A stretch of 32,000 bases of DNA from NCBI RefSeq assembly GCF_018336915.1, contig NZ_CP064923.1, positions 3,840,001 through 3,872,000 of the forward strand, given 5' to 3'. Below the pieces are notes generated by a model. That model did not search any database and was not told where the DNA came from. It saw nothing but the letters and a program-made list of their open reading frames with translations. This document shows, one piece after another, positions 2,354 to 30,107 of this stretch (the stretch's first letter is position 1; each line of letters begins with the position of its first letter). This stretch comes from Acaryochloris marina S15. Its GTDB lineage: Bacteria; Cyanobacteriota; Cyanobacteriia; Thermosynechococcales; Thermosynechococcaceae. A program made the translations under genes and the position numbers.

Positions 2354-2578
2354 ACATTTCCTTTAATCTTCATTGAGTATTGAAAGTGGAATTTTGAATT
2401 TAAATCTGTTTACTAAAAGCGGATTAGTATTTTTGGCATATAGCTTAATCAATACAACGCACCTAAATTAAACACCCTGTAACTTCTAATATTGAGATAT
2501 TAACTAATTGATAGGTAGTGATACTCTAACGCCTCCACTTACCCATATCAGGTTTTGGTAGAAGCTTCCTTCTATTCC

Positions 2579-2785
2579 TCAATCACTCTTCTCTGTTTGT
2601 TTAATGAGAACTTTCGTTTGCCCCACCTCGTCGATATTTATAACGATCTCATCTCCTGCCTTAACACGACTGGTCAGAATTTCCTCAGCAAGACAATCTT
2701 CCAAAAGATGTGTGATCGCTCGACGTAGCGGACGCGCTCCCATCTCAGAATCATAGCCTACATCTACTAGCCGCTCCTTAAACAA
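2579..2785 (-). pseudogene. clpC: 3'-terminal remnant of a clpC-type Clp/Hsp100 ATPase gene (last ~68 codons only)
   Basis: The product FKERLVDVGYDSEMGARPLRRAITHLLEDCLAEEILTSRVKAGDEIVINIDEVGQTKVL matches the C-terminal D2-small domain signature (GARPLRR, LEDxLAEEIL) of ~820-aa ClpC proteins. The frame is closed by TAG five codons upstream of the TTG used by the ORF track. No ClpC-like sequence is recognisable further upstream. Confidence 0.8.
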
Positions 2786-3286
2786 ATCGGTAGTGCGCTA
2801 GCGAAGTGTGGGATACACAGCTAAATCGTTCCAAGTCCAAGGATTCAAGGATAGCTCCGCTTTTTGAGCTGTGGGTACGGCTATGGGTCCAAATCCAGTT
2901 GAAATAGCTTATACCAATTAGCACCTAAGAGTGTAATTCTAATTATTTGCTAAGCCAACTCAGTATTGGGTTTCACGAGTTTGAGAGTTACACCTTCAGG
3001 CACAGCTTGGTATTAGGTAGCAATGCTTGCCCGCACGATTGACAACCCTTCCAACCTCAGGGACGAAACTCACTCAGGAGCCTCAACCCTAGGTCTCTGT
3101 AGGTATCAAAGGCTAGAAACCTAACCTACCGTCAGATTTCTAACACATGATTGAAAGCACCTGGAACTATTGTCCACTCTTCGTTAGTCCAAACTCAAGT
3201 ATTAGAGGCTGATACTTAAATCAGGGGGCTGAATACAGATAGATAAGGGGCGATGAAAAGCAATGTAGTTTCAGTAAATCTTTTAC

Positions 3287-5255: not shown

Positions 5256-5288
5256 AATCCCAATTGACGAAAATTTTTGGAGTGGAAT

Positions 5289-5690
5289 ATGTCGAGAAGC
5301 AAATCAATCTTATCTTTAGGAAGTTGCGCTTTCGTTGCCCTGAGCGCAATGTTACCCCTGGGTGCCCAGGCCCAAGCGGATCCCTCTCAGTTAGGAATTC
5401 CTGAAGAGACAACATTTGCTATCATTACGCGAATGAGTGATACTGTGGCCGCCCGTATCTCAGCCTCCTCCTGCAAAGATACTCGCAATCTGTTGAAAGA
5501 GATGCGTAAGAGCAAAGGCAGCAAAACCTCAGAGCTATCTTTAGAAGGTCAATTGCTAGCCTCGGCCCAAACCCAACCTAAGTTGCAGCAAGTTGTGGCC
5601 AATCGAGTGGGTACAGCCTTGGCCCTTAAACTCATGCAGTGCAACATGATGAATCCTGATACTTTGGGTGCTTTGTTTAACCAGAAATAG
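5289..5690 (+). CDS. Small secreted hypothetical protein (signal peptide)
   Basis: MSRSKSILSLGSCAFVALSAMLPLGAQAQA/DP is a classical n-h-c signal peptide with an AxA site. GGAG at 5279-5282 lies 6 nt before this ATG. The ORF-track start at 5277 is a TTG. No family was recognised. Confidence 0.5.
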   Translation: MSRSKSILSLGSCAFVALSAMLPLGAQAQADPSQLGIPEETTFAIITRMSDTVAARISASSCKDTRNLLKEMRKSKGSKTSELSLEGQLLASAQTQPKLQQVVANRVGTALALKLMQCNMMNPDTLGALFNQK

Positions 5691-7016
5691 TTAGACCACC
5701 ACTTTGTTCTCTAGGACATTTTGCTGAGCCTGATGAACTCGATTTCGACCTGAAGTCTTAGCTCCATAGAGTGCCTGATCTGCTTGTTTGATCAGGTGCT
5801 CTTTCGTTTGGGCATCAGCCGGGAAGGTTGCAACGCCTAAACTAGCCGTCATTTCTACCTGCTGCAAGGAGGGCAGAATTACGGTCTCCTCAGCAATGGC
5901 TAGACGGATGCGATCTGCGATCGCAACACTATCATCACTATTGGTCTTAGGAAGAATGACCGCAAACTCCTCGCCCCCGTATCGACAAACAATATCCCCT
6001 GGTCGCACTTCCCGCTGCAGGAGTTGAGCTACTTCACAAAGGGCCAAATCCCCGGCCTGATGGCCAAAGGTATCATTGAGCTGCTTGAAATGATCAATAT
6101 CCACCATGATCAGCGAAACTTGATCGGTATTGCGCTGGGATTTCTCCACTTCCACCCTCAACCAGCGATTGAATTCCCGCCGATTGTAAACCTCCGTTAG
6201 ACCATCCAACGTGGCTAAACGGTACAAGTCTTTTTGGCTTTGCTCCAGCTTGGTCGCCATCAGGTTAAAGGTTTCTGCCAAATGACTCAATTCATCGCCT
6301 GAGGCCAAAGCAATCCGATGGCTCAATTCTCCCTTACCTAATTTTTCAACCCCTTCCTCCAAAGTTTGCAGTGGAACTGTAATAGAGCGAGACAGTCCAT
6401 AGGCAAACACGATTGCTAGCGCCAACGCCAAACCACAAATCATAGCGATGAGCTGTCTAACTTCTTTGCGAACGGCTTTTGCTTGGTTGGTATTGGCATC
6501 ATTTTGAAACACAATTAACCGATAATTCAGTTGTTGGACATCTTGCAAAATCATTCTGAGCTGGTCTTGCAGCTCAACTCTGGTAGATTGTGTATTTCCT
6601 GATTCAGAAATAGAGGGATCTAGGAGTTGTTTACACAGCTGGGAAATTCGTTGCCATTTTCGCTGTATTTCTAGAACAGAATTAAATTGGTGTGGATCAT
6701 GGTGGGAGAATTCTAAGAGCCTTTCCAAACTATTTGTGATGGCCTGACTTTTTTCCTGATACTTATCCCAAGTCATGGGGCGAGATGGCCCTACCGGAGA
6801 TGCCACCACATTTAAATCTAGAAATAATCCCTCAACCTCGGCCAGGGGGAACAAGGCTTCCCGACCCAAATTATCGTGCTTATCAAAACTACCTAATGCC
6901 CCTTCAAAGGAAATGATTGCCCCTGTAGCCAGCATGAGTAAGGGCACAAGCATGGCCCCTAAGCCCAATCGTAGGCGTTGGTTTAGGGAGGTTTTAGGTG
7001 TGGACCAAAAGGGCAT
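5691..7016 (-). CDS. Membrane sensor diguanylate cyclase (periplasmic/TM sensor - HAMP - GGDEF)
   Basis: An N-terminal TM segment and a second TM are followed by a HAMP-like SHRIALASGDELSHLAETFNLM. The GGDEF domain has an intact GGEEF and an RxxD I-site (RPGD 5 residues upstream). Confidence 0.9.
   Translation of the reverse strand: MPFWSTPKTSLNQRLRLGLGAMLVPLLMLATGAIISFEGALGSFDKHDNLGREALFPLAEVEGLFLDLNVVASPVGPSRPMTWDKYQEKSQAITNSLERLLEFSHHDPHQFNSVLEIQRKWQRISQLCKQLLDPSISESGNTQSTRVELQDQLRMILQDVQQLNYRLIVFQNDANTNQAKAVRKEVRQLIAMICGLALALAIVFAYGLSRSITVPLQTLEEGVEKLGKGELSHRIALASGDELSHLAETFNLMATKLEQSQKDLYRLATLDGLTEVYNRREFNRWLRVEVEKSQRNTDQVSLIMVDIDHFKQLNDTFGHQAGDLALCEVAQLLQREVRPGDIVCRYGGEEFAVILPKTNSDDSVAIADRIRLAIAEETVILPSLQQVEMTASLGVATFPADAQTKEHLIKQADQALYGAKTSGRNRVHQAQQNVLENKVVV
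5917..5924. repeat. HIP1 octamer GCGATCGC
   Basis: Exact match read in the sequence. Confidence 0.95.
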
Positions 7017-7027
7017 AGAAGTACTGG

Positions 7028-9391
7028 TTATTCCGCAATCGGTAAAGACAAGCTCGCTGGATTAGACCGCGCAGCAATAACCTGCTTAGCAGCTTCCGGC
7101 TTCAGGGGACGAGCAAACCAATAGCCTTGCCCAAGTTCACATCCTAAGGTGTGTAGATATTGCATTTGTTCTATCGTTTCAATCCCTTCTGCCACAACAT
7201 TCATCTCTAATCCATGGGCAAGGGCAATAATCGTTTTGACAATTTGATCTTGTCCTTGGCCAATCCCCCAGACAAAAGATCGATCGATTTTGAGGGTATT
7301 AATGGGCAAGTTATACAGATAATTCAAGGATGAATAGCCCGTGCCAAAATCATCCAAACTGAGGGAAATGCCTAAGTTTTGCAATTGCTCTAATCGATCG
7401 GTGACGTAGTAAGTAGACTCCATCAACACCGTTTCGGTAATTTCCAGTTTGAGATGCTGACCGGCGAGTCGGTGCAACTGTAGTAAAGATTCAACGGACT
7501 TAACAAAGTTAGGTTGCAGAAACTGTTGGCTGGACACGTTAATACTCATGGTCAACGGTACAGAAAATTGCTGCTCCCATGTCGATAGTTGTTGACAAGC
7601 CGCTTCTAAAACCCACTGTCCCAAAGGAATAATCAGCCCCGTTTCTTCGGCAACAGGAATGAACTTTTCGGGAGAAATCAGTCCTTGTTGAGGATGGTGC
7701 CATCGCAACAGGGCTTCAAAACCAACCAGCTGCTGTTGCCGCAAGCAGAAAATAGGTTGGTAATACAGTTGAAACGGGTTCTGCCCTTGATCAATCGCCT
7801 TGATGGCATATCTCAAGCTATTGCCTAACCATAAGCGAGAGCGAACTTGCCGATGCATTTTTTCATCAAAGACCACATAGCTCCCTCGACCATGGGCTTT
7901 GGCACGATACATGGCCGTATCTGCGTCTCGCAATAGTTCTTCTGGATGTTGAGACAAACTGGTGGAATGGGTAATACCCATACTGACTGAGGTAAATACT
8001 TCTTGCTGCTTGAGCTTCAGGGGCTTAGCCAAGGACCGCTGGATACGCTGGACAATTTTATGGGCTTGCTGATGATTCACCACTCCATCTAAGAGAATGG
8101 CAAACTCATCTCCTCCTAATCGAGCCAGCAAATCTTGAGGTCGCAAACTCTCTTTAAGCTGCTGAGTAATGGCAACGAGGAGCTGATCTCCCACACTATG
8201 TCCCAGGCTGTCATTGACGAGCTTAAAGTGATCGACATCCAAAAACAGAATGGCGAAATGACTCAGGGTAGGTTGGCGAGAATATCCTTCCAGTTGTTGC
8301 CGCTGGACCTGTTGCAGTTTGTGTTGCAGCTGTTCGTAGAAGTAGTCGCGACTCGGTAATCCGGTCAAGGTATCAAAGAGCGCTTTTTGTTTGAGTTCCT
8401 CGGCTGTCCGATGTCCCTCCATCGCAATACTCGCCAAATGGGTAGCGGTTTTAATGATGTTGAGATGATGAGCAGTCGGGAAACAGGGGACTTGGTGAGA
8501 CAGGGCAAAGGTGCCTAAGAGGTCTCCAGACTGGGAGAAAAAAGGCGTGGACCAACAGGCACGAATATTATGTTGTTGGGCAAACTCCCGGAAGTCCGCC
8601 CAGACGGGATCGCGTTGAGTATCTTCAACATAGACAGCCTTGCCACGAAAGGCAGCCGTCCCACAAGAGCCTGCATTTTCAGCAATCAGTAAATGATCAA
8701 AAGCGGCAGCCACTTCCGATGACAAGCTTGGCCCTGCTCCCATGCGCAGTTCCTGTTTGTGGGCATCCCGTAAGAGAATAGAGCACACCGTCCCTGGGGA
8801 CTGACTTTCAATCAATAAACATAAACTGCTGAGGATTGCATCTAGCCCTTGCCCCGTCGCCACATGTTCCAAGATTTGGGTCTGGGTTTGCAGTAGCGTT
8901 TCCGAACGTTTGCGCTGAATGGCCGTTGCTAACACCTGGGCCACACAGGCACCAAAACGGAGATCCTCTTGACTCCAATTCTGGGGCTCGGGAGTCAAAA
9001 TTTCCAGTAACCCTAGGGGGCGATCGGTTCCAGGGATGGGGATGCAAAGTCCGCTAATGAGTTGGGGTTGTGTCAGAGGAAGTTGTTCTGATTGCCCGGA
9101 AATAACGGCTGTTTGCCCAGTTTGCATCAATGCCTGTAACCACCGATAGCCCCGACTATCGATATCGGTGGCTTCCCCTAGGAGTGTCGCTTTTTGTTTT
9201 GCCACCAACCTCAGGGTATTGCTATCGGAGAGGACTTGCCACAAACTACAGTCTTCGACTGGCAAGTGGTGACTCATCAGTGCGATCGCATCTAAATACA
9301 AGTCAGTTAAGCTAGACCCGGACAATGCTTTCTGCCCTAATTCAGTTAGTTCCGACTGTCTATCTAGAGGATTTGTCGCAAAGTCATTCAT
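7028..9391 (-). CDS. GAF-GAF-GGDEF-EAL c-di-GMP turnover protein
   Basis: The GGDEF motif is intact (RLGGDEFAILL) with an RxxD (RPQD) I-site. EAL-domain signatures EALLRW, INVS, EITE, DDFGTGYSSL, KIDRSF, EGIET and GQGY are all present. The N-terminal ~350 aa are GAF-like. The start is uncertain: the ORF track uses TTG at 9472, and I prefer the first ATG at 9391 (MNDFATNPL). Confidence 0.88.
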   Translation of the reverse strand: MNDFATNPLDRQSELTELGQKALSGSSLTDLYLDAIALMSHHLPVEDCSLWQVLSDSNTLRLVAKQKATLLGEATDIDSRGYRWLQALMQTGQTAVISGQSEQLPLTQPQLISGLCIPIPGTDRPLGLLEILTPEPQNWSQEDLRFGACVAQVLATAIQRKRSETLLQTQTQILEHVATGQGLDAILSSLCLLIESQSPGTVCSILLRDAHKQELRMGAGPSLSSEVAAAFDHLLIAENAGSCGTAAFRGKAVYVEDTQRDPVWADFREFAQQHNIRACWSTPFFSQSGDLLGTFALSHQVPCFPTAHHLNIIKTATHLASIAMEGHRTAEELKQKALFDTLTGLPSRDYFYEQLQHKLQQVQRQQLEGYSRQPTLSHFAILFLDVDHFKLVNDSLGHSVGDQLLVAITQQLKESLRPQDLLARLGGDEFAILLDGVVNHQQAHKIVQRIQRSLAKPLKLKQQEVFTSVSMGITHSTSLSQHPEELLRDADTAMYRAKAHGRGSYVVFDEKMHRQVRSRLWLGNSLRYAIKAIDQGQNPFQLYYQPIFCLRQQQLVGFEALLRWHHPQQGLISPEKFIPVAEETGLIIPLGQWVLEAACQQLSTWEQQFSVPLTMSINVSSQQFLQPNFVKSVESLLQLHRLAGQHLKLEITETVLMESTYYVTDRLEQLQNLGISLSLDDFGTGYSSLNYLYNLPINTLKIDRSFVWGIGQGQDQIVKTIIALAHGLEMNVVAEGIETIEQMQYLHTLGCELGQGYWFARPLKPEAAKQVIAARSNPASLSLPIAE
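9282..9289. repeat. HIP1 octamer GCGATCGC
   Basis: Exact match read in the sequence. Confidence 0.95.
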
Positions 9392-9924
9392 AGAGCCAAC
9401 GATACAAATTTGGGGACCTGTTAAATATGCAATTGAATCACAAGGGTTAATACAACGAATGTTTGACTCCAATCACCCAATCTTAGGCAAACGGATTATT
9501 TCACTGTCCTAAATCCTAGCCAATTCTGTGGAGGGAGAAATATGTAAATCTACTGAAATTTTCTTTACAAAGATATTTATGTATCCAAACGAACGCTCAA
9601 TAAAACCTTCTATTCATTGATATAGCCCAATATTTTTTAGCAATCAAAAAACTTAAATCATACATAGAAATCTGTACTAATCCTTGCTCTCTCAACCTGT
9701 ATAAAAAGCTAAGCCTCAAAATATAGGCATCACTATAGATAGTTTTGATGTCATAGTTCTCTACATGCCTACAGTTCTCATCTCCTTTAATCAGTAAGCT
9801 TTGTAGGGCTATGTTGTCCTTTGCTCCATAATTTCTACTATAAAAACAGAAATAGTCTTCTACCACAAGGGACTATATTTCAATGGCACTGAAAATGTCT
9901 ACAGAACGGAATCTTTATGAATAT

Positions 9925-9959
9925 AAATAATAAAAAAGAGAGGCACATCGGCCTCTCTT
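9925..9959 (-). terminator. Rho-independent terminator of hemL
   Basis: The minus strand reads AAGAGAGGC-cgatgt-GCCTCTCTT (9-bp stem, 6-nt loop, + coordinates 9936-9959) followed directly by TTTTTTATTATTT. It lies about 57 nt downstream of the hemL stop. Confidence 0.8.
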
Positions 9960-10016
9960 GAATGATTATTTGCAAAGATGATCTTTAGCTGATGAAATCA
10001 ACCTCTAAATTAGATC

Positions 10017-16713: not shown

Positions 16714-17691
16714 CTAGTCGTAACACCAGGTATCAAAGGATCGGCTGGGCGGTGCCTGATTCGATCGCACCGGTCGATGAAAGATGGATTTAGTATTAGT
16801 TGGCTTCTTGCGGGTGGTGGCTAATGCTGAGGACTTTTGCGTTTTTCTAGAGGTTGAACTGGTTTGCAGCTCAGCTACTTGTTTTTGCAACCGATCATTC
16901 TCTTTTGCTAATCGCACTGCATCCTGGGTGGTTTGCTCCAGCTTCTCTTTAATCGCATCTGTTTGATGGGTCGATTTCTGCAACGCTGTCAGGGCCGTTT
17001 TCTGCTCAGCCAGCTGTGACTCCAATTGAGCCACCTTCTTCTGCAAAGAGGTTTCTTTGGTTTGAGCTGCCTTTAAATCTTTAGTTAGGGCACTGACTTT
17101 CACTTTTAAATCAGTGTTAATGGATTGAGCACTACTGGCTGCGGAGCTGCTTGCGGTTGAGGCAGGTTTTGCTGCTGCTTTCTGTGCCGTAGAGGCGGCA
17201 GGCTTAGCCTTCTTTGCTGCCGCCGTCTTTGTGGCTGTTGTTTTCCGACTAGAAGATCGGCTGGACGTTGCCTTTTTAGCAGTAGAAGATTTAGTCGTTG
17301 ATTTTTTAGCTGCGGGTGCAGCAGCTTTGGTTGTTGACGTTGACTTCTTAGCTGCTGGTGAAGCAGCTTTGGTTGTTGACGTTGACTTCTTAGCTGCTGG
17401 TGAAGCAGTCTTAGTAGTGGAAGCAGCCTTAGGGGTCGATTTCTTAGCTGCGGGTGCAGCCTTAGTAGCCCCGGCAGTCTTTTTTTCCGTAGTTTTTTTG
17501 GCAGTGGTCGATTTAGCCGTACTTTTCTGGGCTGTCGTTGTCTTTTTCGCTGCAGCTTTTTTCGCTGATGTGGCTTTCTTTTGGGTCGTTGACGCGGCTG
17601 GTTTTGCACCTGCGCCATCTTTTTGATCAGGGGTCGCAGTTTTAGTTGCTTCTTCCCGTAATAAATCTGACAAACTTTTCTTCGTAGCCAT
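16714..17691 (-). CDS. 325-aa disordered K/A/T/S-rich, Q-rich coiled-coil protein with a C-terminal Trp; candidate ParA partner (McdB-like)
   Basis: The ATG at 17689-17691 overlaps the parA-like TAA (17691-17693) as TAATG. Domain order: [15 protein letters not shown], then ~170 aa of AAKK/STTKAA low complexity, then a heptad-like Q/K/E/L segment (about 16864-17121), then a basic tail ending SFDTWCYD. Two other frames are also open because of the repeats. This frame was chosen for the coupling and the coiled coil. Confidence 0.75.
   Translation of the reverse strand: MATKKSLSDLLREEATKTATPDQKDGAGAKPAASTTQKKATSAKKAAAKKTTTAQKSTAKSTTAKKTTEKKTAGATKAAPAAKKSTPKAASTTKTASPAAKKSTSTTKAASPAAKKSTSTTKAAAPAAKKSTTKSSTAKKATSSRSSSRKTTATKTAAAKKAKPAASTAQKAAAKPASTASSSAASSAQSINTDLKVKVSALTKDLKAAQTKETSLQKKVAQLESQLAEQKTALTALQKSTHQTDAIKEKLEQTTQDAVRLAKENDRLQKQVAELQTSSTSRKTQKSSALATTRKKPTNTKSIFHRPVRSNQAPPSRSFDTWCYD
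17321..17404. repeat. Perfect 2 x 42-bp tandem repeat (encodes SPAAKKSTSTTKAA twice), flanked by degenerate copies
   Basis: 17321-17362 and 17363-17404 are identical (gcagctttggttgttgacgttgacttcttagctgctggtgaa). The unit at 17279-17320 is a diverged copy. Confidence 0.95.
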
Positions 17692-18401
17692 TAACTGTCC
17701 CAATCCCGCTTAATTTCATCAACAACGCGGCAATAATCTGCTTTTGCCTCTTTACTATATTTCCCTTTCCATTGTGTAATCGGCTGTCCTTCCAAAGCTG
17801 CCCGTTCATGCGCCTTATAACTACGTACAAAGGCATGAAAAGCCGGAATGCCTAACTCCATCAAAGTGTTTTGAGCATCCAATGCTTCTCGCAAGCTTCG
17901 AGGATCGACCCGAGTTAGTAATACCCGATGAGCCACTCCCGATGGTTTGACTAATGTCCGCACCGTTTCAATTAGAACGGCAATTTCCATTGGGGCAGGA
18001 GGCGTAGGGAGCACTAAATAGTCAACCACAGGAATGACCATTTTCAAAATCTCTGACTCTAGACCTGGTGGCGTATCTACGACGACCAGCTCTTGCTTAC
18101 TGGAACGGCGCAAATTTTTCAATTCTTTCGCGCTAGCCCCAGATTGGACTTGGAATTTAAGGGAATTTGTATCACGCTGGGTCCACCAAGTTGCGGACCC
18201 TTGCGGATCGGCGTCAATTAGGAGAACTTGATGAGCTTCTGCAAATACTGCTGTGAGATTAACAGCCGTGGTGGTTTTACCAACACCACCTTTGCCATTG
18301 AGGACGGCGACAACCTTGGTTTTTGAAGATTTAGAAGGCAACTTGGGCACCGCTAATGATTGCCAATAGTAAGCAGGAGGCTCTGACTTTGCAACTTGCA
18401 A
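17691..18401 (-). CDS. ParA/MinD-family deviant Walker-A ATPase (small, no HTH domain); McdA-like candidate
   Basis: Motifs present: [16 protein letters not shown] (KGGxxGKT with the signature Lys), [14 protein letters not shown] and VVVDTPPG. The start is uncertain: TTG at 18401 in the ORF track, with no ATG before the Walker A. Confidence 0.88.
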
Positions 18402-18508: not shown

Positions 18509-18524
18509 ATAGACAATAATCTAT
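18509..18524. promoter_or_regulatory. Palindrome ATAGA-N6-TCTAT, copy 1 (upstream of the LysR gene)
   Basis: ATAGACAATAATCTAT lies 57 nt upstream of the LysR ATG. A near-identical copy is at 21095-21110. Confidence 0.45.
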
Positions 18525-18571
18525 TACAATAAAGCCAGACAACGACTTTAGTCTATACGCAATCTTTCTGT

Positions 18572-18580: not shown

Positions 18581-19495
18581 ATGCAGCCAACTCTACATCA
18601 ACTGAAAGTGTTTGAAACTGCTGCCCGCCATGGCAGCTTTACTCGCGCCGCTGAAGAACTTTACCTGACACAACCGACCGTATCAATTCAGATCAAGCAG
18701 CTGTCCAAGACGGTTGGTTTCCCTTTATTCGAGAAGTTGGGAAAACAGCTTTACTTAACAGAAGTTGGCAATCGGTTATTTAGCACCTGTCAATCCATTT
18801 TTGAAGAACTTGATCAATTCGAGATGATTGTCAGTGATTTGCAGGGGATGACCCAAGGCAAGTTACATCTTGCTACAGTCACTACCTGTAAGTATTTTGT
18901 CCCTCGTTTACTGGGTAATTTTTGTGACCAATATCCTGGCATTGATATTTCTCTGAAAATCACTAACCATCTCCAGCTGGAAAAGCGGATGATGGAAAAC
19001 CGAGATGACCTCTACATCCTCAGTCATCCTCCCCAACATATGGATCTCAAAGTTCAGCCTGTCATTAAGAATCCACTTGTAGTGGTAGCTCCACCCAACC
19101 ATCCCCTCGTGGGTCAGAAGAATATCGATATTTCTGCTCTCAATGATGAACGCTTTATTATGCGGGAGTCAGGCTCGGGAACTCGCCATGCTGTTCAGGC
19201 TCTATTCAACAAACATAAAGTCAATGTTGAAATCAAACTAGAACTGGGCAGTAATGAAGCGATCAAACAAGCGATTGCAGGAGGATTGGGAATCTCAGTG
19301 CTATCGCGCCACTCCCTTAATGGTCGAGAATATACTGACCTAGCCATTCTGGATGTCGAACATTTTCCCATTGAGCAGCAATGGTCGGTTGCCTATTTAT
19401 CGGGTAAACATCTCTCTGTTGTGGCCGAAACCTTCCTACACTATTTAGTCTCGGTCACTGATCATGCTGAAATGCCTTGGATACACTTCAAATAA
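18581..19495 (+). CDS. LysR-family transcriptional regulator, CbbR/CmpR-like
   Basis: The N-terminal wHTH MQPTLHQLKVFETAARHGSFTRAAEELYLTQPTVSIQIKQL and later blocks (RESGSGTR, LGSNEAIKQAIAGGLGISVLS) resemble the CbbR/CmpR subgroup as I remember it. It is divergent from the parA-like gene. Confidence 0.9.
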   Translation: MQPTLHQLKVFETAARHGSFTRAAEELYLTQPTVSIQIKQLSKTVGFPLFEKLGKQLYLTEVGNRLFSTCQSIFEELDQFEMIVSDLQGMTQGKLHLATVTTCKYFVPRLLGNFCDQYPGIDISLKITNHLQLEKRMMENRDDLYILSHPPQHMDLKVQPVIKNPLVVVAPPNHPLVGQKNIDISALNDERFIMRESGSGTRHAVQALFNKHKVNVEIKLELGSNEAIKQAIAGGLGISVLSRHSLNGREYTDLAILDVEHFPIEQQWSVAYLSGKHLSVVAETFLHYLVSVTDHAEMPWIHFK

Positions 19496-19590
19496 GATTT
19501 ATCAGTAACTTTTAAGAACAACGCAGCCACCTAACTCCTGAGATCAAACTTCCAGGGTTATCTGGGAAAGAAAACACGGTACTCACAGCA

Positions 19591-19636
19591 CTTGAGCCAG
19601 TGGAGGTCAGACAGCTCTTTCCCCCACTGGCTCAAG
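19591..19636. repeat. 13-bp perfect GC-rich inverted repeat (CTTGAGCCAGTGG, 20-nt loop) between convergent genes
   Basis: Arms 19591-19603 and 19624-19636 are exact complements. It lies 96 nt after the LysR stop and 22 nt after the stop of the minus-strand orphan. There is no clean U-tract on either strand. Confidence 0.85.
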
Positions 19637-19657
19637 GTTTCTGGAAACGGGATGTTT

Positions 19658-20338
19658 CTAGTTCACCCCATTTACCTGCTGGCTTAAATCATTAACACTT
19701 TGGGACATGATGGCTAAAGCTTGCTGAAGGCTTTCTACATCAGCCCCGGCGCCATTAGGTAGTGCGGGGATCGTAGAGGGTGAAACCGGTAAGGGAATCC
19801 CAATCCCTCCGGTAAAGATAGAATCAACCTCCATTAGACTAGCTCCCGTAGAAGTGGGAACTGCTGTGGAGAGCTGATCAAATTCAGTTTCGCCAGCGTT
19901 GGGCAGAAAAGTACCACGATGTTCAGGGGTAAAGAGGAGTTGGCGATTCAGCAACGCTGGAAAAGGGAATCGTTGCCGGACAAAAACTTCGACATAACCC
20001 CGAAACTCAACAGTGTCGACATTGGGGTCGAGGGTGAGAATATCAGGCTGCAAAATGATTAAGCCTGTGTCCTTGGCTCTGAGTCCAAAGTCATAACAAC
20101 TATCAGCATCCAGAGTGCCAAAATCGTTAGAACCACCGGTATCTCGAATTACAATTAGCTTACTGGTATCGAGAGCTGGGGTTGTTGCATTAAATTTCAA
20201 TCGCAATAACACATCAAAGTTATGGGGATTAGAAACTGTTAGAAAATATCCCTGCAAAATTTTCCGGTTGGAGTTAGATATATTTCCTTCTGCAGGTGTA
20301 ATATCTTTAAGGAGAAGTTCAAAGGTTGAAAGTAGCAT
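19658..20338 (-). CDS. Hypothetical protein (226 aa from ATG), no family recognised
   Basis: This is a long ORF with normal composition for the window. The ATG at 20336-20338 is preceded by AAGGAC, and the ORF-track start at 20368 is a TTG. The product starts MLLSTFELLLKDITPAEGN and has a helical Q-rich C-terminus. Confidence 0.6.
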   Translation of the reverse strand: MLLSTFELLLKDITPAEGNISNSNRKILQGYFLTVSNPHNFDVLLRLKFNATTPALDTSKLIVIRDTGGSNDFGTLDADSCYDFGLRAKDTGLIILQPDILTLDPNVDTVEFRGYVEVFVRQRFPFPALLNRQLLFTPEHRGTFLPNAGETEFDQLSTAVPTSTGASLMEVDSIFTGGIGIPLPVSPSTIPALPNGAGADVESLQQALAIMSQSVNDLSQQVNGVN

Positions 20339-21094
20339 AGAAATGTCCTTTGTGTGATGGTTGATCAATAAATTTCAGTGAGGATCATTGAATGTATTTA
20401 TGAGTAACGATTACTGAGATAAACAGAAGAAAAATGTTCTTTTCAAGTAAAGATCTCAAATTTATCTTCCATAGCCTTTTTAAGGCAAAATAACAAAGCA
20501 GATAGCTTGTTAGTGCCATTGAGAGTTCCTAGGATACTTGAGCATAAAAGTTAGAGGCTAAGCTCTAAACATATGCAGCTTCAATGCCTGACACCTAAAT
20601 TGACTTTTGAAATCTACTAGTGTAGTCATCTTGTTTAGATAGTAGAAGCTCAATGAATTCACCCTGAAAAGGCCATTAAAGAGAGAAGATTTTGATTTGT
20701 TTTAACCTGTCTTCAGTTCGTTAATCTGAAATCAATATAATCCAAAAAAACTTAGATAAAAGTGATTATCTTCAATATTTTGTGTGACATAAATCATTGA
20801 AAATTTCTTCTTTGTATAAAATATTTTTTATGCTTATAAATAATATTATATGCTTTTTCTGTAGTATTTTTGTTGCAGGAAAGATGCAATAAAAACAAGT
20901 CCAGTATGATTCTAATTGGGTCGCATCTATAGGCTAAGTAATATAGAAATATTTTTAAAATTCGTACCTTTAAAAACTACTGTGTAGAAATCAATGGCCA
21001 TCAATACAGGCGAGAATGATACGGAATTCAGCTCTAGGTAAAGGTTTCTATATGGTTTGATTTCGATTTAAATCTCCAATCTTCTGACTTGAAG

Positions 21095-21110
21095 ATAGAG
21101 ACTAATCTAT
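21095..21110. promoter_or_regulatory. Palindrome ATAGA-N6-TCTAT, copy 2 (upstream of ppx/gppA)
   Basis: ATAGAGACTAATCTAT lies 84 nt upstream of the ppx ATG. With flanks it matches copy 1 at 17 of 20 positions (ATAGA.A.TAATCTATT.CA). Confidence 0.45.
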
Positions 21111-21193
21111 TGCAGAGATTCAAACCCCCGTTGACCACTGTCCCCAAATCCGCATACAGTTTCTAGCAGGATCACCCAGGGGCCAAACGAGCC

Positions 21194-22792
21194 ATGCAAA
21201 CCATTGCCGCTATTGATGTGGGAACCAATTCGATCCACATGGTTGTGGTGAAAGTTAACCCTGAAATTCCAGCATTCAATATTATTGATACTGAGAAAAG
21301 TACCGTTCGCCTAGGGGAAGGCAGCAAAGATACTGGGAAGCTGCATCCGGATGCGATCGCAAGAGCAATTGCCGCCTTGCGCAGATGTCAAGAAGTTGCC
21401 GCAGCCTGCAAAGTCGAACAGATCCAAGCGGTTGCCACCAGTGCTGTCCGGGAAGCCCTCAATGGTCGGACCTTTATTCGTGCCGTTGAGTCCGAACTCG
21501 GGCTTAAAATCAATGTCATATCCGGTCCAGAAGAAGCCCGGCGAATTTACCTCGGGGTCTTGTCCGGTATTGAATTTAATAACAAGCCCCACGTCATGAT
21601 TGATATTGGGGGTGGATCAACCGAGCTCATTTTAGGGAATGGTCAAGATCCGCGCTCCCTCAGCAGTACCAAGGTAGGAGCGGTACGGCTGACTGAGGAA
21701 TATATCACCACCGATCCGGTCAGTACTAGCGAATTTGAGCGGTTACAGGCCTATGTTCGAGGAATGTTGGAATGGCCGGTTGAAGAGTTGCGTTCCCATC
21801 TCTCTCCCGATGAAGTGCCAACCCTTATTGGCACCTCCGGAACAATTGAAAGCATTCTCAAACTGCATGCCTGCGAGGTTATGGGAGCTTGTCCCACCTC
21901 TCTTCATGGCCACGTCCTCACCCTTGATGACCTGAACGACCTCATCCACAAGCTGCGAAAGCTCAATTACGACGAACGCTGCAAAATGCCTGGGATGACG
22001 GAGCGGCGAGCAGAAATTATTTTAGCCGGAGCTGTAATTTTGGCTGAAACAATGACCCTGCTGCACTTAGATTCCATTACCACCTGTGAACGCGCTCTAC
22101 GAGAAGGCATCGTGGTGGACTGGATGATGAAGCAAGGATTGATTGAAGATCGACTCCGCTACCAGGGTTCCGTGCGAGAACGCAGCGTCATGAACTTGGC
22201 CCATCAGTACCATGTGGAGTTATCAACTGCTGAGCGAATCGCTGATTTTGCCGTCGCTTTATTTGATCAAACCCAAGGCTCTCTCCATCATTGGGGAATA
22301 GACGAGCGTCATTCCCTGTGGGCAGCCGCTATTTTGCATAACTGCGGGCATTACATCAGCCATTCCGCCCATCATAAACATTCCTACTACTTAATCCGTC
22401 ATGGCGGCTTGTTGGGCTATACCGATGCCGAAGTCGAGATTATTGCCAACTTAGCCCGGTATCACCGCAAAGGAGCTCCCAAAAAGAAGCATGAGAACTA
22501 TCAGAACTTGGTGAATAAAGCCCAACGTCAGATCGTCGACCAGCTCAGTGCCATTCTTAAGTTAGCGGTCGCCTTGGATCGGCGGCAGATAGGTGCGATT
22601 GAATCCCTACATTGTGAAATTGATTCAGATACCATTACCCTCCATCTCCAAGCGAGTCAAACCGACGATGACTGTGCTTTAGAGCTATGGAGTTTAGAGA
22701 TGAAAAAAGCTTGCTTTGAATCCGAATTTGATATGACTCTGGTCGCTCAACTGGCTGAATCTGCTCCCAGCCCTGATTTACAGCTAGCCTGA
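21194..22792 (+). CDS. ppx: Ppx/GppA-family exopolyphosphatase / guanosine pentaphosphate phosphohydrolase with a C-terminal HD domain
   Basis: ASKHA phosphate motifs AAIDVGTNSIHMVV and DIGGGSTEL are present, with a C-terminal HD-type region HNCGHYISHSAHHKHSYYLI. Confidence 0.92.
   Translation: MQTIAAIDVGTNSIHMVVVKVNPEIPAFNIIDTEKSTVRLGEGSKDTGKLHPDAIARAIAALRRCQEVAAACKVEQIQAVATSAVREALNGRTFIRAVESELGLKINVISGPEEARRIYLGVLSGIEFNNKPHVMIDIGGGSTELILGNGQDPRSLSSTKVGAVRLTEEYITTDPVSTSEFERLQAYVRGMLEWPVEELRSHLSPDEVPTLIGTSGTIESILKLHACEVMGACPTSLHGHVLTLDDLNDLIHKLRKLNYDERCKMPGMTERRAEIILAGAVILAETMTLLHLDSITTCERALREGIVVDWMMKQGLIEDRLRYQGSVRERSVMNLAHQYHVELSTAERIADFAVALFDQTQGSLHHWGIDERHSLWAAAILHNCGHYISHSAHHKHSYYLIRHGGLLGYTDAEVEIIANLARYHRKGAPKKKHENYQNLVNKAQRQIVDQLSAILKLAVALDRRQIGAIESLHCEIDSDTITLHLQASQTDDDCALELWSLEMKKACFESEFDMTLVAQLAESAPSPDLQLA
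21353..21360. repeat. HIP1 octamer GCGATCGC
   Basis: Exact match read in the sequence. Confidence 0.95.
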
Positions 22793-25229: not shown

Positions 25230-25895
25230 ATGATGCCAAAACAATTGAAAGTCGGGCTATGGTTCCTTATTGGCTTAGAAATAGGGCTTGCCTTGGCCTA
25301 CCTCATCACTATTTGGCGGCAGCAGTCTGTCCCAGTTTGGTTGGATTGGGATGGATTGAGATCAGTGCCATCACTAATGCAGGCCGCTACTTTATTTGCA
25401 ATCGGCATTTTAGCGTTGCTCCTGCTCCTCTTTCGGCAGCGAATTCAACGGCCCGTTTCTAGATTTCTCCCCTTAGCTCTTGCATCCCTTTGCCTGTATG
25501 GAGGCATTGATGAACTGACGAAGCTCCATCTGCATCTGAATCAATACAACTGGAAAGGCATCTATGTGGCTATTTTGATTGCCATTCCGTTGATCTGTTG
25601 GCGGGATCTAGCTCGGCTATGGCGGGAGCATCGTTCAATTGTGTTGTGGGTATTTTTGGGACTCGGTATTTTCTTGCTCGGTGGATTTGGTGCAGAACTG
25701 ATCAAGGAGCATTTGTATACAGGAGTCTCTCCTGAAGCCACCTTCACCTTGGCAGGGCAAACTATAAATCTGCTGTTTTGGGTTGAGCATCTTAGGGTCA
25801 CTGTTGAAGAGTTTGGTGAATTGTTGGGCGAAACAATCATCCTCTTTGGGGTTGCTCAATTTGTCCTGAAAAGCTTATCCCCACAAGTGACTTAA
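25230..25895 (+). CDS. Polytopic membrane protein, hypothetical
   Basis: The ORF is 221 aa with about 6 hydrophobic segments. No family was recognised. Confidence 0.65.
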   Translation: MMPKQLKVGLWFLIGLEIGLALAYLITIWRQQSVPVWLDWDGLRSVPSLMQAATLFAIGILALLLLLFRQRIQRPVSRFLPLALASLCLYGGIDELTKLHLHLNQYNWKGIYVAILIAIPLICWRDLARLWREHRSIVLWVFLGLGIFLLGGFGAELIKEHLYTGVSPEATFTLAGQTINLLFWVEHLRVTVEEFGELLGETIILFGVAQFVLKSLSPQVT

Positions 25896-27984: not shown

Positions 27985-28474
27985 TCCATGTTGCACGAGG
28001 CGTTCACCAACCCAGATGTTCTTTGAACGAATTTATAGGTGAAGCTGATCTAGAGAAATGAATTGTACCTAGATAGCTAAATGAGAAACATCACAGAGGA
28101 AAACTGCAGATTACAAAGTTGAATATCACTTCACAACCCTACAGATACCATTACTATTTCTAGACGTTAGAGAAAGTCTTTTGTTCTATACATCTAAAAA
28201 TAATTTGCCCCTGAGAGAGACTGAATTAAAACTTTGTAAAGTAATTGACACAAAGGTTCTACTGCATTGAACCTCACACAGATAAATTGTAATCTTCTCA
28301 AGAAAAATTTGTGAATCTTCTTAAAGAATGATCTATCTAACTGTTTAGCTAAAATAGCTAAATCAAGGTTTCATGATTCAGAGAAAAAGCAATAGCACTT
28401 GAGATGAGAAATGCTTCTTCACTAGTTGGTTTTAAAAGCTGCTGAAAAAGTAATGCCTTCAACCAGGGAAGGGA

Positions 28475-29587
28475 CTATTGGGACGTAAACAGCGCTCCAG
28501 GTCTTAATCGTAGCTTGCCTCGTCGTTTGTTTTTTTGCTGATGGAGTGCTTGCTGTAAGCGTCCTACTAATTCTAAGGTTCGTCGCGACTCCAAAGAGGC
28601 ACAATCTTTTTGATGAGTCTGGACGCGGTTGCGTCCCTGTTGCTTAGCCACATACAAAGCACGATCGGCCGCTTCAATCAGGATAGAAGGGGCCACATTC
28701 TCATCAGGCACCTGACTGGCAACCCCTAAGCTCGCGGTAACATTATTTCCTGTTAAAGAGAGTTGGTGAGGAATCTCAAGATTATGAATAATACTTCGGA
28801 TAGCTTCTGCGACTTGGGTTGCCCCATCTAAATCAGTATTCGGTAAGATAATGGCAAACTCTTCACCACCATAGCGAGCAACACAGTCGGCAGGTCGTTT
28901 AGCCACTTTAGCAATCGCTTGAGCAACTTTGCGCAGGCAGTCATCTCCAGCTTGATGACCATAGGTATCGTTAAACGCTTTGAAGTGATCTACATCGCAC
29001 ATAATCAAAGACAAGGGATGATTCTCTCGACATAATCTGTTCCATTCCGATAAAAAGGTTTCATCGAAGCAACGGCGATTATTGACCTGAGTTAAACCAT
29101 CTATCGTTACCAGTTGTTCCAGCTGCAGGTTGGCAATTTCAAGCTGTTCAGACAGAGATTGCAACGTTCGATTTTTGGCATCCAGTTCTAGTAATAAGCT
29201 TTGGCGTTCAACCGCATACTGAATAGAGCGACGTAAATGGCTACTTGTAAACCGTCCTTTAACTAAATAGTCTTGAGCACCTTCTTGCATCGCTGTCAGA
29301 GCGACCGTCTCATCTGAATTGCCACTCAATATAATCACGGGAGTTAAAGGAAATGCTTGATTGACTTGGTGGAAAAGATCAAGTCCTACCGTTCCTGCAA
29401 TACACAAATCTAGGAGAACGAGATCAATCGCAATCTCAGACTCTAATAACTCAAACCCAGCCACTAGGTTGGAACAGTGTAAAAGATCTGTAGGGAAATC
29501 ATGACTGACATTCAGCAATTCCCGAACAATTTCCACGTCCTGCTCGTCATCATCGATCATGAGGATATTGAGATGAGCAGCTTGCAT
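28475..29587 (-). CDS. Response regulator (REC) - coiled-coil - GGDEF diguanylate cyclase
   Basis: REC features ILMIDDDEQD, DLVLLDL and the lysine (K) in DYLVKG are present. GGEEF is intact with an RxxD (RPAD) I-site. Confidence 0.9.
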   Translation of the reverse strand: MQAAHLNILMIDDDEQDVEIVRELLNVSHDFPTDLLHCSNLVAGFELLESEIAIDLVLLDLCIAGTVGLDLFHQVNQAFPLTPVIILSGNSDETVALTAMQEGAQDYLVKGRFTSSHLRRSIQYAVERQSLLLELDAKNRTLQSLSEQLEIANLQLEQLVTIDGLTQVNNRRCFDETFLSEWNRLCRENHPLSLIMCDVDHFKAFNDTYGHQAGDDCLRKVAQAIAKVAKRPADCVARYGGEEFAIILPNTDLDGATQVAEAIRSIIHNLEIPHQLSLTGNNVTASLGVASQVPDENVAPSILIEAADRALYVAKQQGRNRVQTHQKDCASLESRRTLELVGRLQQALHQQKNKRRGKLRLRPGALFTSQ

Positions 29588-29954
29588 TTTTCAGGGGCCC
29601 CCTTGTCAAAAAATTAGACGTTCTTCTGGGCAAAAATTCACTGTCATTCCGAACTAATACGGAGAAGATAAGTCCTTAGGTATATCACTTATACCGCCCT
29701 ATGATGCCCAAAATCTTCCGTAATCCTACGTATCTTTAAGGCTCCGAGGAATGAAAATAATCGAGATAGATTCGAGGTATTCCAGGATATTTGGGCCATC
29801 GTCCATCCTATGCCAGAGTCAATTCTACGCCATTTCTTTTATGCCAGGATGATTACTGTTAGGCCTTGTTTTTTGTAGTTTTAGATACAATCTGCTATCG
29901 TTTTCCAGTTATCTCTGGCTAGCTAGAAAATACTTGCTGATCATTGTTTCTTGT

Positions 29955-29971
29955 TATTCAATAATTGAATA
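29955..29971. promoter_or_regulatory. Perfect 8-1-8 palindrome TATTCAAT-A-ATTGAATA
   Basis: Read directly from the sequence. It lies in the 520-bp spacer downstream of the M19 dipeptidase stop (30108) and upstream of the REC-GGDEF start (29587). Confidence 0.35.
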
Positions 29972-30107
29972 GTTTGCACTCTCTTTAATTGAGATATGTG
30001 TCGTTTAAATTAACCCAATCTGGTAAAAATATTGAATTGATTAGCACTTGGATGCCTAGCTTTTGGCGGTTGTGATATTCGCTATCCACCTGACAGATGA
30101 CTGAGGC

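Follow-up and report, generated by a model that had tools for sequence, protein, structure and literature searches.

What does an 855-bp spacer (20339-21193) with a GC content of 0.33 contain, when it separates a gene of unknown function from the divergent exopolyphosphatase gene ppx? This is the question raised by the locus described here, in which the uncharacterised gene, X, encodes 226 residues. The first-pass annotation of the region took X for an orphan, put the spacer at about 825 bp, judged it odd in a compact genome, and offered four contents for it: small RNAs, small proteins, a complex promoter or a decayed insertion. The gene boundaries it gave stand (Table 1), its estimate of the spacer falls somewhat short, and of its four options only the complex promoter survives in the analysis of the window, that is, of the whole 32-kb stretch of Acaryochloris marina DNA examined. 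The reading to which we give most credence, with a probability of roughly 0.6, is that of an ordinary yet regulator-rich divergent promoter region beside a conserved gene of unknown function. It overturns no current knowledge and is useful for annotation and experiments; for the window it removes a false lead, no hidden gene or RNA having been detected in the spacer.

Table 1. Features of the X-ppx locus (window coordinates, or residues where indicated).
Feature	Position	Strand	Remarks
ndhR/ccmR orthologue (LysR family)	18581..19495	+	convergent with X
Hairpin, 21-nt arms	19591..19636	.	between convergent ndhR and X
Gene X, 226 aa	19658..20338	-	ORF; orthologue of A. marina MBIC11017 AM1_0557
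X protein, beta-sandwich core	residues 1-176
X protein, disordered Pro-rich linker	residues 179-200
X protein, amphipathic C-terminal helix	residues 201-224
Predicted 5' leader of X, ~390 nt	20339..20727	-	inferred; neutral-rate drift
Shine-Dalgarno AAGGA of X	20346..20350	-	7 nt before ATG 20338
Core-promoter block of X	20718..20741	-	TCGTTAATCTGAAATCAATATAAT, conserved in window, L001, L005, L003
-10 TATATT of X	20739..20734	-	starts 21 nt after box 2
CRP-like box 2	20761..20776	.	AGTGAttatctTCAAT; centre 20768.5, ~-41.5 from predicted TSS
CRP-like box 1	20783..20798	.	TGTGAcataaaTCATT; centre 20790.5, ~-63.5 from predicted TSS
Non-conserved AT-rich filler, 280 bp	20799..21078	.	trio-invariant fraction 0.28-0.64, five-way 0-0.36
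NdhR/CcmR (LysR-type) box ATAG-N8-CTAT	21095..21110	.	ATAGAgactaaTCTAT; exact motif match
ppx promoter-like element TTGACC-18-TACAGT	21131..21160	+	within 96-100% conserved block 21129-21153
ppx (exopolyphosphatase, Ppx-GppA)	21194..22792	+	divergent neighbour of X

Length, composition and conservation of the spacer

The spacer is indeed far more AT-rich than the coding DNA, as had been noted, its GC content, which falls to 0.26-0.28 in 20600-21050, contrasting with 0.45-0.51 for the flanking genes and 0.46 for the whole window; it also lacks any ORF of 60 codons or more, the longest (from ATG, GTG or TTG) having 44 aa and the longest stop-free stretch 60 aa. Both its length and its AT-richness are nevertheless normal for Acaryochloris: 6 of the 17 spacers in the window reach at least 400 bp, and three others resemble it in composition (544 bp at GC 0.33, 478 bp at 0.34 and 520 bp at 0.39), so that compactness of the genome is no reason to find it odd.

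Synteny and length are retained among relatives (843-916 bp in four lineages, 721 bp in L004), and the comparison for conservation islands that had been recommended is productive. Identity across the spacer equals the neutral, synonymous-site expectation except in three islands: the tandem CRP-like boxes (20761-20798) with the TATATT downstream of them, the ribosome-binding site of X, and the ppx-proximal 115 bp containing an ATAG-N8-CTAT box. With only 5-8 lineages compared, and these related to one another, the counts given here and below do not represent independent events. The remaining ~670 bp, consisting of the leader and the 280-bp filler, evolve neutrally; no gene for an RNA or a small protein, and no remnant of a mobile element, is detectable in them. 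Two A/T palindromes reported earlier are present at slightly different coordinates. The first, GATTTAAATC (21065-21074), is not preserved as a palindrome in relatives and is thus attributed to chance; the second, ATAATATTAT (20840-20849), lies within a partly conserved AT-rich stretch.

Tandem CRP-like boxes and the predicted promoter of X

The first island consists of two pseudo-palindromic 16-bp boxes, 22 bp apart, which match the CRP consensus (TGTGA-N6-TCACA-like) at 8/10 (box 1) and 7/10 (box 2) positions. Their TGA-N6-TCA core is invariant across lineages, and in box 1 the invariance extends to GTGA-N6-TCA in five of them. In 950 kb there are 8 tandem TGA-N6-TCA motifs at this spacing where 0.24 would be expected; each of the 8 precedes an X gene, and enrichment is confined to this spacing. 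By these counts, the tandem module is specific to X. It is found in L007, where X has a different upstream neighbour, as well as in the Thermosynechococcaceae loci L053 and L064, and position-weight-matrix matches in L004 and L007 fall at the same position as the boxes of the window. Family-wide, single CRP-like boxes are 5-fold enriched upstream of X.

The boxes are followed by a conserved core-promoter block and a TATATT hexamer, from which, together with conservation, a transcription start at about 20727 (A) is predicted. Cyanobacterial CRP promoters have a TAN3T -10 element about 22 bp downstream of the site (PMC2633013), which places the centre of the site near -41.5, and the two sequence features of a class II-type CRP promoter are found here, a site-like box and a -10 element at the proper distance. 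On this reading, transcription of X would start roughly 390 nt before the ATG, at a class II-type promoter that depends on a CRP-family protein, and the mRNA would carry a long leader of unconstrained sequence. Such an arrangement has precedent: in known cyanobacterial cases the CRP site is hundreds of bp away from the start codon (-143 to -371), so that leaders are long (PMC2633013). The predicted promoter shares with those of slr1667-1668 and slr2015-2018, controlled by SyCRP1 in Synechocystis, the TGTGA-N6-TCACA-type boxes, the TAN3T -10 element and the long leader; it differs from them in having two boxes at a fixed spacing, each matching at only 7-8 of 10 positions. Further, CRP targets described so far do not include the X family, and the published prediction of CRP sites in MBIC11017 does not have AM1_0557 in its supplement. 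We infer that the boxes bind a CRP-type regulator; given the incomplete consensus matches, they could belong to another member of the CRP/FNR family. No crp gene occurs in the 32-kb window; A. marina MBIC11017 and T. elongatus are among the genomes that encode one (PMC2633013). The resulting promoter model for an uncharacterised yet widely conserved cyanobacterial gene comes down to two 16-bp boxes, and the suggestion of a complex promoter is borne out on this side of the spacer by the tandem operator and its -10 element, as it is on the other by an NdhR/CcmR operator and the promoter of ppx.

A leader of this length could itself be functional, either as a structured riboswitch-like or thermosensor element of X or, if the CRP-type promoter served an independent small RNA, as that RNA. 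Three A. marina lineages keep the boxes 451-455 bp from the ATG and the distance remains considerable elsewhere (399-496 bp), the X leader folds at a borderline z of -1.79 (6 of 100 shuffles being equally stable), and both the NdhR and the CRP regulons of Synechocystis include non-coding RNAs (PMC13249358). We nevertheless hold a functional RNA to be unlikely. Compared with L001, the leader has per-bin identities of 0.60-0.76 and four-fold degenerate sites 0.65-0.73, so spacer and synonymous sites drift alike; X leaders in different contexts share no sequence; and the consensus that RNAalifold derives from five leaders (438 columns) has an energy of -11 kcal/mol and a covariation term of -0.32, leaving a common structure unsupported. 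Folding of the X leader, the ppx leader and both strands of the filler (the latter at z -1.0 and -0.3) gives values from -1.8 to +0.2, none of them significant, and a scan of the spacer for intrinsic terminators finds none. The covariance-model scan that had been proposed returns no Rfam family at gathering score anywhere in the window and, at E <= 10 over 19400-21400, only eukaryotic snoRNA and lncRNA noise (best E 1.7). The small RNAs envisaged at first thus find no counterpart in Rfam, folding or covariation.

Still less probable is that the tandem boxes serve a plus-strand promoter, for a non-coding transcript or as a distal promoter of ppx, and not X. CRP sites are symmetric, and a TTGAAA-17-AATATT element at 20797-20825 would place box 1 at -41.5; however, both of its hexamers vary between lineages, on which ground this candidate was rejected, whereas the minus-strand TATATT block is conserved, and the module is oriented to X in the same way at loci without a neighbouring ppx (L007, L053, L064).

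Search for small proteins and inserted DNA

A decayed insertion, whether a pseudogene, what is left of an IS or MITE, or AT-rich DNA gained by horizontal transfer, might account for the low GC content of the spacer relative to the window, and long AT-rich DNA does lie upstream of X in 6 of 6 Acaryochloris-type loci, whatever the upstream neighbour. Against it, other long spacers of the window have the same composition, and X itself, with a GC content of 0.45, is near the genome value. The spacer contains only short, chance-level pairs of direct, inverted or tandem repeats, and is similar neither to the other spacers of the window nor to any of 72,556 plasmids, a set that presumably includes the IS-rich plasmids of A. 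marina; its stop-free translations give nothing below E 0.06 against Pfam. With no trace of repeats, plasmid or IS similarity or a pseudogene, we regard this origin as very improbable. The same applies to unannotated small proteins: there are several ORFs of 31-44 codons in the spacer, but matches between lineages are confined to the nucleotide-conserved promoter blocks, with none in leader or filler, so that conserved small ORFs are lacking.

A probable NdhR/CcmR operator upstream of ppx

The most informative single motif of the spacer proved to be the ATAGA-N6-TCTAT site already singled out in the first-pass annotation and located here 84-99 bp before the ppx ATG. It matches ATAG-N8-CTAT, the NdhR/CcmR consensus (review PMC13249358), which occurs twice in the 32-kb window against 0.29 expected, once before ppx and once before ndhR; on this count the motif is specific. 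The box before ndhR (18509-18524) is kept in 5 of 5 lineages and directly followed by TACAAT; the one before ppx is kept in 4 of 5, with invariant arms and a varying centre, and is missing in the syntenic L004. The ndhR product matches Synechocystis NdhR/CcmR (PDB 5Y2V) over its full length at a phmmer E of 2e-127, and the assignment of ppx is confirmed by Pfam (PF02541, Ppx-GppA, E 2.9e-82; PF21447, E 1.4e-45).

The ppx-side 115 bp would accordingly comprise a ppx promoter and an operator, which is most likely bound by the NdhR/CcmR protein encoded two genes away. Relative to the predicted ppx start site the box is centred at -64.5, about 20 bp upstream of the -35 hexamer, a position that suits the regulatory site of a LysR-type regulator and not simple repression. 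Two sequence marks of an NdhR/CcmR regulon are present, a box upstream of the first gene and an orthologue with a box of its own. The resemblance to the Synechocystis operators lies in the exact motif, in the adjacency of the ndhR orthologue, and in the box before ndhR itself, which fits its known autoregulation; the locus departs from them in that the ppx box is not clearly placed over the promoter and is absent from one syntenic relative, and in that ppx is not among the regulon members named in the review (NDH-1 genes, sbtA/B, bicA, nhaS1, ccmR and ncRNAs; PMC13249358). Binding of NdhR/CcmR to the operator would place ppx among the candidates for the carbon-concentrating-mechanism regulon of A. 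marina, and the box offers a candidate link between the regulator of this mechanism, NdhR/CcmR, and exopolyphosphatase; if true, polyphosphate turnover would be wired into the CO2-concentrating mechanism.

The ndhR gene also adjoins a candidate mcdAB carboxysome-positioning pair.

Gene X and its product

X and its MBIC11017 orthologue are 95% identical in amino acids and only 73% identical at four-fold degenerate sites, which indicates purifying selection on a conserved gene. Far from being an orphan, X has 84 homologues in a 90%-clustered database and belongs to a family of 355 clusters at 50% identity, in the alignment of which the N-terminus (MLLSTFELLLKDITPAEGN in the ORF translation) and many polar residues are invariant. 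This N-terminus and the conserved AAGGA support the ATG as the start codon; the longer start at TTG 20368 is without support. The block CACA(C/T)AAAGGACATT is near-identical in four syntenic lineages (window, L001, L005 and L003/L006), and the counterpart of the Shine-Dalgarno stretch in L004 is AAGGAA.

The earlier statement that the protein matches nothing is correct as regards curated families and structures (solved or viral); it does not hold for sequences, since homologues exist throughout the cyanobacteria. No profile of Pfam, NCBIfam or PADLOC matches X; a search of 67 homologues against Pfam at E <= 5 gives no consistent match, no family being common to more than 2 of the 67; and the PADLOC defence models recognise neither X nor the operon partners of its homologues. 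Look-ups of AM1_0555-0559 in literature and supplements return nothing relevant.

Structure prediction, which had been recommended, supplies a confident AF2 model (pLDDT 82, pTM 0.72), from which the family is confidently predicted to have an all-beta core; a significant fold neighbour is lacking in both PDB and BFVD. Taking a significant Foldseek E-value together with a TM-score above 0.5 as the mark of a known fold, the best match in the PDB has an E of 1.8e-3, with all query-normalised TM-scores at or below 0.27, and the best in BFVD an E of 1.3e-4 with a TM-score of 0.24. Partial matches to pilins, arrestin, the Ig domains of PAD4, PliG and GOLD reflect a generic beta-sandwich and, none being significant, were discarded as evidence of homology. 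The family profile retrieves from PDB sequences only coiled-coil noise, arising from the tail. A sequence scan finds no transmembrane or signal-like segment. In our reading the product is a cytoplasmic protein, a beta-sandwich followed by a Pro-rich linker and, at the C-terminus, an amphipathic helix.

Operon partners of the X family

X belongs to a cyanobacteria-wide uncharacterised family for which neither Pfam nor NCBIfam has a model. In the genomes surveyed, its homologues elsewhere in cyanobacteria head operons with a DUF1350 serine hydrolase, a graspetide-type ATP-grasp ligase, or both, partners that do not accompany X in Acaryochloris, where it stands alone. In 31 of 76 genomes the homologue lies directly upstream of the ATP-grasp gene, and exactly these ATP-grasp-linked homologues carry a Lys/Glu-repeat tail (K+E 0.18-0.28, with KEIKPEIKE-type repeats), against a K+E of 0.02 in the Pro-rich tail of the window X. 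In Oscillatoriales and Nostocales, downstream of the KE-tail homologue come genes for a degenerate ATP-grasp-like protein, a graspetide-type ligase and the DUF1350 serine hydrolase. In the Pro-rich-tail subfamily, to which the window X belongs, the recurrent partner is DUF1350 (PF07082), with an invariant GHSLG motif; the DUF1350 alpha/beta-hydrolases of cyanobacteria and plastids, a functionally uncharacterised family (PMC11878206), do not adjoin X in Acaryochloris.

The closest solved relatives of the X-linked ATP-grasp are PsnB, CdnC and MdnC/B, and its position next to X homologues recalls the graspetide operons of microviridin (MdnA/B/C), plesiocin (PsnA/B) and chryseoviridin (CdnA/C). 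There are, however, differences: a precursor of the X type would bear a folded beta-sandwich of 175 aa and not a short leader, and the X-linked ligase scores 153-156 bits, far below the NCBIfam cut-offs of 350. The window X itself lacks both attributes of a graspetide precursor, since it has no adjacent MdnC/PsnB-type ligase (an ATP-grasp domain is likewise absent from all 20 further ORFs, each at least 100 aa long, that were kept as genes of the 32-kb stretch) and its tail has no core with repeated Thr/Ser/Lys and Asp/Glu.

A bolder reading sees in the beta-sandwich core of the family a possible folded leader or scaffold for an undescribed class of ribosomally made, ATP-grasp-cross-linked proteins, and in the Acaryochloris X a stand-alone derivative of that system which retains the core and the amphipathic helix. 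X may then act alone or together with a hydrolase whose gene lies elsewhere, and may be turned on by a CRP-family (cAMP) signal. The full combination, with a leader or scaffold core, a CRP-switched derivative in Acaryochloris and ppx brought by NdhR into the CO2-concentrating-mechanism regulon, is a tentative one that we would sooner doubt than expect to hold throughout. The association of the X family with graspetide-type ligases and DUF1350 hydrolases is previously undescribed; it hints at what may be a novel type of ATP-grasp-modified protein and is the one result of this analysis that could grow. A carboxysome-associated role, suggested by the neighbouring ndhR and mcdAB and by the tail of linker plus amphipathic helix, was not adopted, because this synteny is limited to Acaryochloris and the operon partners of the family elsewhere are unrelated to carboxysomes.

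The downstream neighbour of X is the convergent ndhR, and the hairpin between the two genes is probably their shared terminator.

A conserved gene family and its upstream spacer

The 226-aa gene X and the spacer that separates it from the divergent ppx are a real feature with, in our reading, an ordinary explanation (probability about 0.6): a conserved hypothetical gene with a long leader and a regulator-rich divergent promoter region. Each of its elements belongs to a known kind, be it the CRP-type promoter, the NdhR operator or the unannotated protein family, and no new kind of element is among them.

X is a real, conserved hypothetical gene and not the orphan it had been taken for. A word-indexed search returned 84 homologues, all 'hypothetical' and every named one cyanobacterial (hosts include Acaryochloris, Nodosilinea, Leptolyngbya, Synechococcus PCC 7335, Trichodesmium, Calothrix and Cyanobium gracile), and a profile run against 1.84 billion representatives gave 355 clusters at E <= 1e-3, of which 130 reach E <= 1e-30. 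The product matches QUY41123.1 ('hypothetical protein [Acaryochloris marina]') at every residue and shares 95% identity with AM1_0557 of strain MBIC11017. Translation starts at ATG 20338, with a conserved AAGGA 7 nt upstream, and from its first residue on the N-terminus MLLSTFELL hardly varies throughout the family. Compared with the closest independent lineage, protein identity is 95% and identity at four-fold degenerate sites 73%; X is thus under purifying selection. The first-pass annotation was right that the protein matches no recognized family, in that no Pfam, NCBIfam or PADLOC model is hit, and scanning the 67 aligned members at E <= 5 brings up no consistent match either.

Structure prediction, proposed at that stage, gives a confident AlphaFold2 model with the family alignment (mean pLDDT 82, pTM 0.72), in which a β core is followed by a linker and a helix; the model is without a known fold neighbour, as Foldseek finds nothing convincing in the PDB (best E 1.8e-3, query-normalised TM <= 0.27) or BFVD (best E 1.3e-4, TM 0.24). 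A search for a membrane or signal-like segment in the protein found none. The family's invariant polar residues (R25, Q29, Y31, N37, N71, R113, H140, R141, T143, D154, Q155) suggest a specific site of binding or catalysis.

Table. Coordinates of the features discussed (window positions, or residues of the X protein).
Feature	Position	Strand	Remark
X	19658-20338	-	226 aa
ppx	21194-22792	+	Ppx-GppA by Pfam, E 2.9e-82
ndhR (LysR gene)	18581-19495	+	convergent with X
X ribosome-binding site	20339-20353		constrained island
Island with CRP-like boxes	20718-20803		constrained island
Island adjoining ppx	21079-21193		constrained island
Box 1, CRP-like	20783-20798		TGTGAcataaaTCATT
Box 2, CRP-like	20761-20776		AGTGAttatctTCAAT
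TATATT	20739..20734	-	conserved
NdhR box in spacer	21095-21110		ATAG-N8-CTAT match
NdhR box before ndhR	18509-18524		ATAGACAATAATCTAT
Long spacer	2354-3286		
Long spacer	9473-10016		GC 0.33, similar composition
Long spacer	27997-28474		GC 0.34, similar composition
Long spacer	29588-30107		GC 0.39, similar composition
X protein, all-β core	residues 1-176		mostly pLDDT > 90
X protein, Pro-rich linker	residues 179-200		disordered in AlphaFold2 model
X protein, C-terminal helix	residues 201-224		strongly amphipathic in AlphaFold2 model
ParA-type ATPase gene	17691-18401	-	KGGVGKT
Candidate McdA/McdB pair	16714-18401	-	overlapping genes
Hairpin	19591-19636		between ndhR and X
c-di-GMP turnover genes	5691-9472, 28475-29587		three genes
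TGTGA-N6-TCA match	28082-28095		upstream of M23 peptidase gene
221-aa ORF	25230-25895		no Pfam match
524-aa ORF	3287-4861		no Pfam match
137-aa ORF	5277-5690		no Pfam match

The spacer had been described as ORF-free, AT-rich and about 825 bp long; it is indeed AT-rich (GC 0.33, down to 0.26-0.28 at 20600-21050, versus 0.45-0.51 in the flanking genes) and its longest ATG/GTG/TTG ORF has 44 codons, but its length is 855 bp. Nor is such length exceptional for the genome, since 6 of 17 spacers in the window reach at least 400 bp, three others with similar composition. Spacers upstream of X are longer than others in the same loci (median 314 versus 144 bp), in a crude comparison that ignores kinship. 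The order ppx-spacer-X-ndhR also holds in four other independent lineages, with spacers of 854 bp (locus L001), 843 bp (L005), 908 and 916 bp (L003 and L006) and 721 bp (L004). In most 50-bp bins the spacer has an identity of 0.60-0.76 with the closest lineage, matching the 0.65-0.73 that X, ppx and ndhR show at their four-fold degenerate sites, so that most of the spacer drifts neutrally. The search for conservation islands among relatives was rewarded: the five-lineage footprint contains constrained places, only three in number.

Among the contents that had been proposed for the spacer, the complex promoter is borne out by a tandem CRP-type module and an NdhR box with the ppx promoter. A small RNA gains no support from the Rfam scan, which found no family, from covariation, of which there is none, or from folding (X leader z -1.79 and filler z -1.04 and -0.32, not significant; ppx leader z +0.20, no signal); the terminator scan found no terminator-like site in the spacer. 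Small proteins are likewise unsupported, as no small ORF is conserved outside the promoter blocks, and so is a decayed insertion, with no repeats, no pseudogene trace and no resemblance to plasmids or the window's other spacers.

A tandem CRP-type module upstream of X

The centres of the two CRP-like boxes are exactly 22 bp apart, and their TGA-N6-TCA cores are invariant among the lineages compared. Tandem cores at this spacing occur 8 times in 950 kb of DNA scanned (0.24 expected), always upstream of X-family genes; other spacings within 18-27 bp give 0-1 hits each. These occurrences represent six independent lineages (four A. marina-type, two Thermosynechococcaceae), and a weight matrix built from them also detects, at the expected position, L004 and L007, the latter an Acaryochloris relative whose X has a different upstream neighbour. 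With all eight occurrences upstream of X genes and a further one in L007, the module travels with X, in fixed orientation, and not with ppx. Single CRP-like boxes are about 5-fold enriched upstream of X family-wide.

TATATT lies 21 nt past box 2 on the X strand, a position that predicts a transcription start near 20727 and places box 2 at about -41.5 and box 1 at about -63.5. Cyanobacterial CRP targets have been described with this same layout: the consensus is TGTGA-N6-TCACA, TAN3T follows some 22 bp downstream, and the sites precede the start codon by 143-371 bp; crp-encoding genomes include A. marina and T. elongatus (PMC2633013). We infer that the X promoter is CRP-family-activated: a CRP-family protein would activate X from the predicted start, yielding a leader of about 390 nt. 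AM1_0557 was found neither in the supplement of PMC2633013 nor elsewhere in the literature searched.

An NdhR/CcmR box upstream of ppx

The ATAGA-N6-TCTAT site flagged in the spacer also reads ATAG-N8-CTAT, the published NdhR/CcmR consensus (PMC13249358), which occurs only twice in the window (0.29 expected). The other occurrence lies directly before the LysR gene, by sequence an NdhR orthologue (full-length match to Synechocystis NdhR/CcmR, PDB 5Y2V, E 2e-127); it is kept in 5 of 5 Acaryochloris lineages, and the TACAAT directly 3' of it (18509-18530) is a good -10 for ndhR, which together form a predicted autorepression layout. The spacer box is kept in 4 of 5 lineages, with invariant arms and a variable centre. 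It lies about 20 bp upstream of the promoter-like TTGACC-18-TACAGT of ppx, which falls within a block of 96-100% conservation, and the centre of the box is at about -64.5 relative to the predicted ppx start. LTTR regulatory sites usually occupy such a position. A review backs the general arrangement of regulatory and activation sites in LTTR promoters. We take ppx to be a candidate target of NdhR/CcmR in the A. marina group, where the regulator would act on it through the spacer box; ppx is not among the regulon members in PMC13249358. Two ppx promoters are possible as those that the box serves.

Over 21129-21153 three A. marina lineages agree completely, while a fourth has 96% identity and a fifth 80%. 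Conservation of 21129-21160 (-35, spacer and -10 of the predicted ppx promoter) exceeds normal promoter need, and the stretch may hold a further binding site or leader element.

Operon partners of X in other cyanobacteria

ORFs were called in 80 named genomes and the neighbours clustered, leaving 76 scorable loci. On the same strand X is followed by c2 (a partner of about 235 aa) and an ATP-grasp at 21, by c2, ATP-grasp and DUF1350 at 9 (plus 1 fusion), by DUF1350 alone at 18, by c2 only, split into two ORFs, at 1, and by none of the three at 26, of which 6 sit at a contig end. For c2 no family match was found; the one similarity it shows, a weak one, is with the N-terminal portion of ATP-grasp maturases. 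The X-linked ATP-grasp matches NCBIfam ribosomal-peptide-maturase models at E 1e-45, yet far below their cut-offs, and the solved structures nearest to it are graspetide ligases throughout: PsnB (7DRM, 1e-18), then CdnC, MdnC, MdnB and AMdnB. DUF1350, of unknown function in the literature (PMC11878206), is in its X-linked form probably an active serine hydrolase, because its GHSLG motif and one His are invariant.

A Lys/Glu-repeat tail, for example KEIKPEIKEIKE, ends 30 of 30 scorable ATP-grasp-linked X proteins (median K+E 0.215); DUF1350-linked and stand-alone X proteins have KE-poor tails (0.075-0.095), Pro-rich among the closest relatives of the window protein. The window protein falls in this KE-poor group. 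Because its K+E is 0.02 and neither an ATP-grasp nor a DUF1350 gene occurs anywhere in the 32 kb, it does not qualify as a graspetide precursor. No account of the X/c2/ATP-grasp/DUF1350 arrangement turned up in the literature searched, and the association of the family with a graspetide-type ligase is likewise undescribed. A graspetide-like role of the family combined with a CCM-polyphosphate regulatory link we consider unlikely.

In Oscillatoriales and Nostocales (loci L020-L073; for example L020:6001-9968 and L042:6001-9500) the X homologue bears a KEIKPEIKE-type Lys/Glu repeat and is followed 3' by c2, a graspetide-type ATP-grasp ligase (nearest PsnB, CdnC, MdnC) and often DUF1350.

Other features of the window

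Divergent from ndhR, a ParA-type ATPase gene with the signature lysine overlaps that of a 329-aa disordered K/A/T/S-rich protein, which has a Q-rich coiled coil and the C-terminus DTWCYD, with Trp at -4. By the hallmarks in PMC7182216 the two are a candidate type 2 McdA/McdB carboxysome-positioning pair; the intergenic NdhR box is common to the pair and ndhR, which hints at carboxysome positioning under control of the CCM regulator. The hairpin between the convergent ndhR and X (21-nt arms with 86% complementarity, 4-nt loop) probably serves as a bidirectional terminator and is not reported by the terminator scan.

The c-di-GMP turnover genes encode HAMP-GGDEF, GAF-GAF-GGDEF-EAL and REC-GGDEF proteins. 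Four more long spacers measure 478-933 bp and are mostly AT-rich; the one at 27997-28474 contains the TGTGA-N6-TCA match. Among the ORFs without a Pfam match, the one of 221 aa keeps its synteny in relatives (L001).
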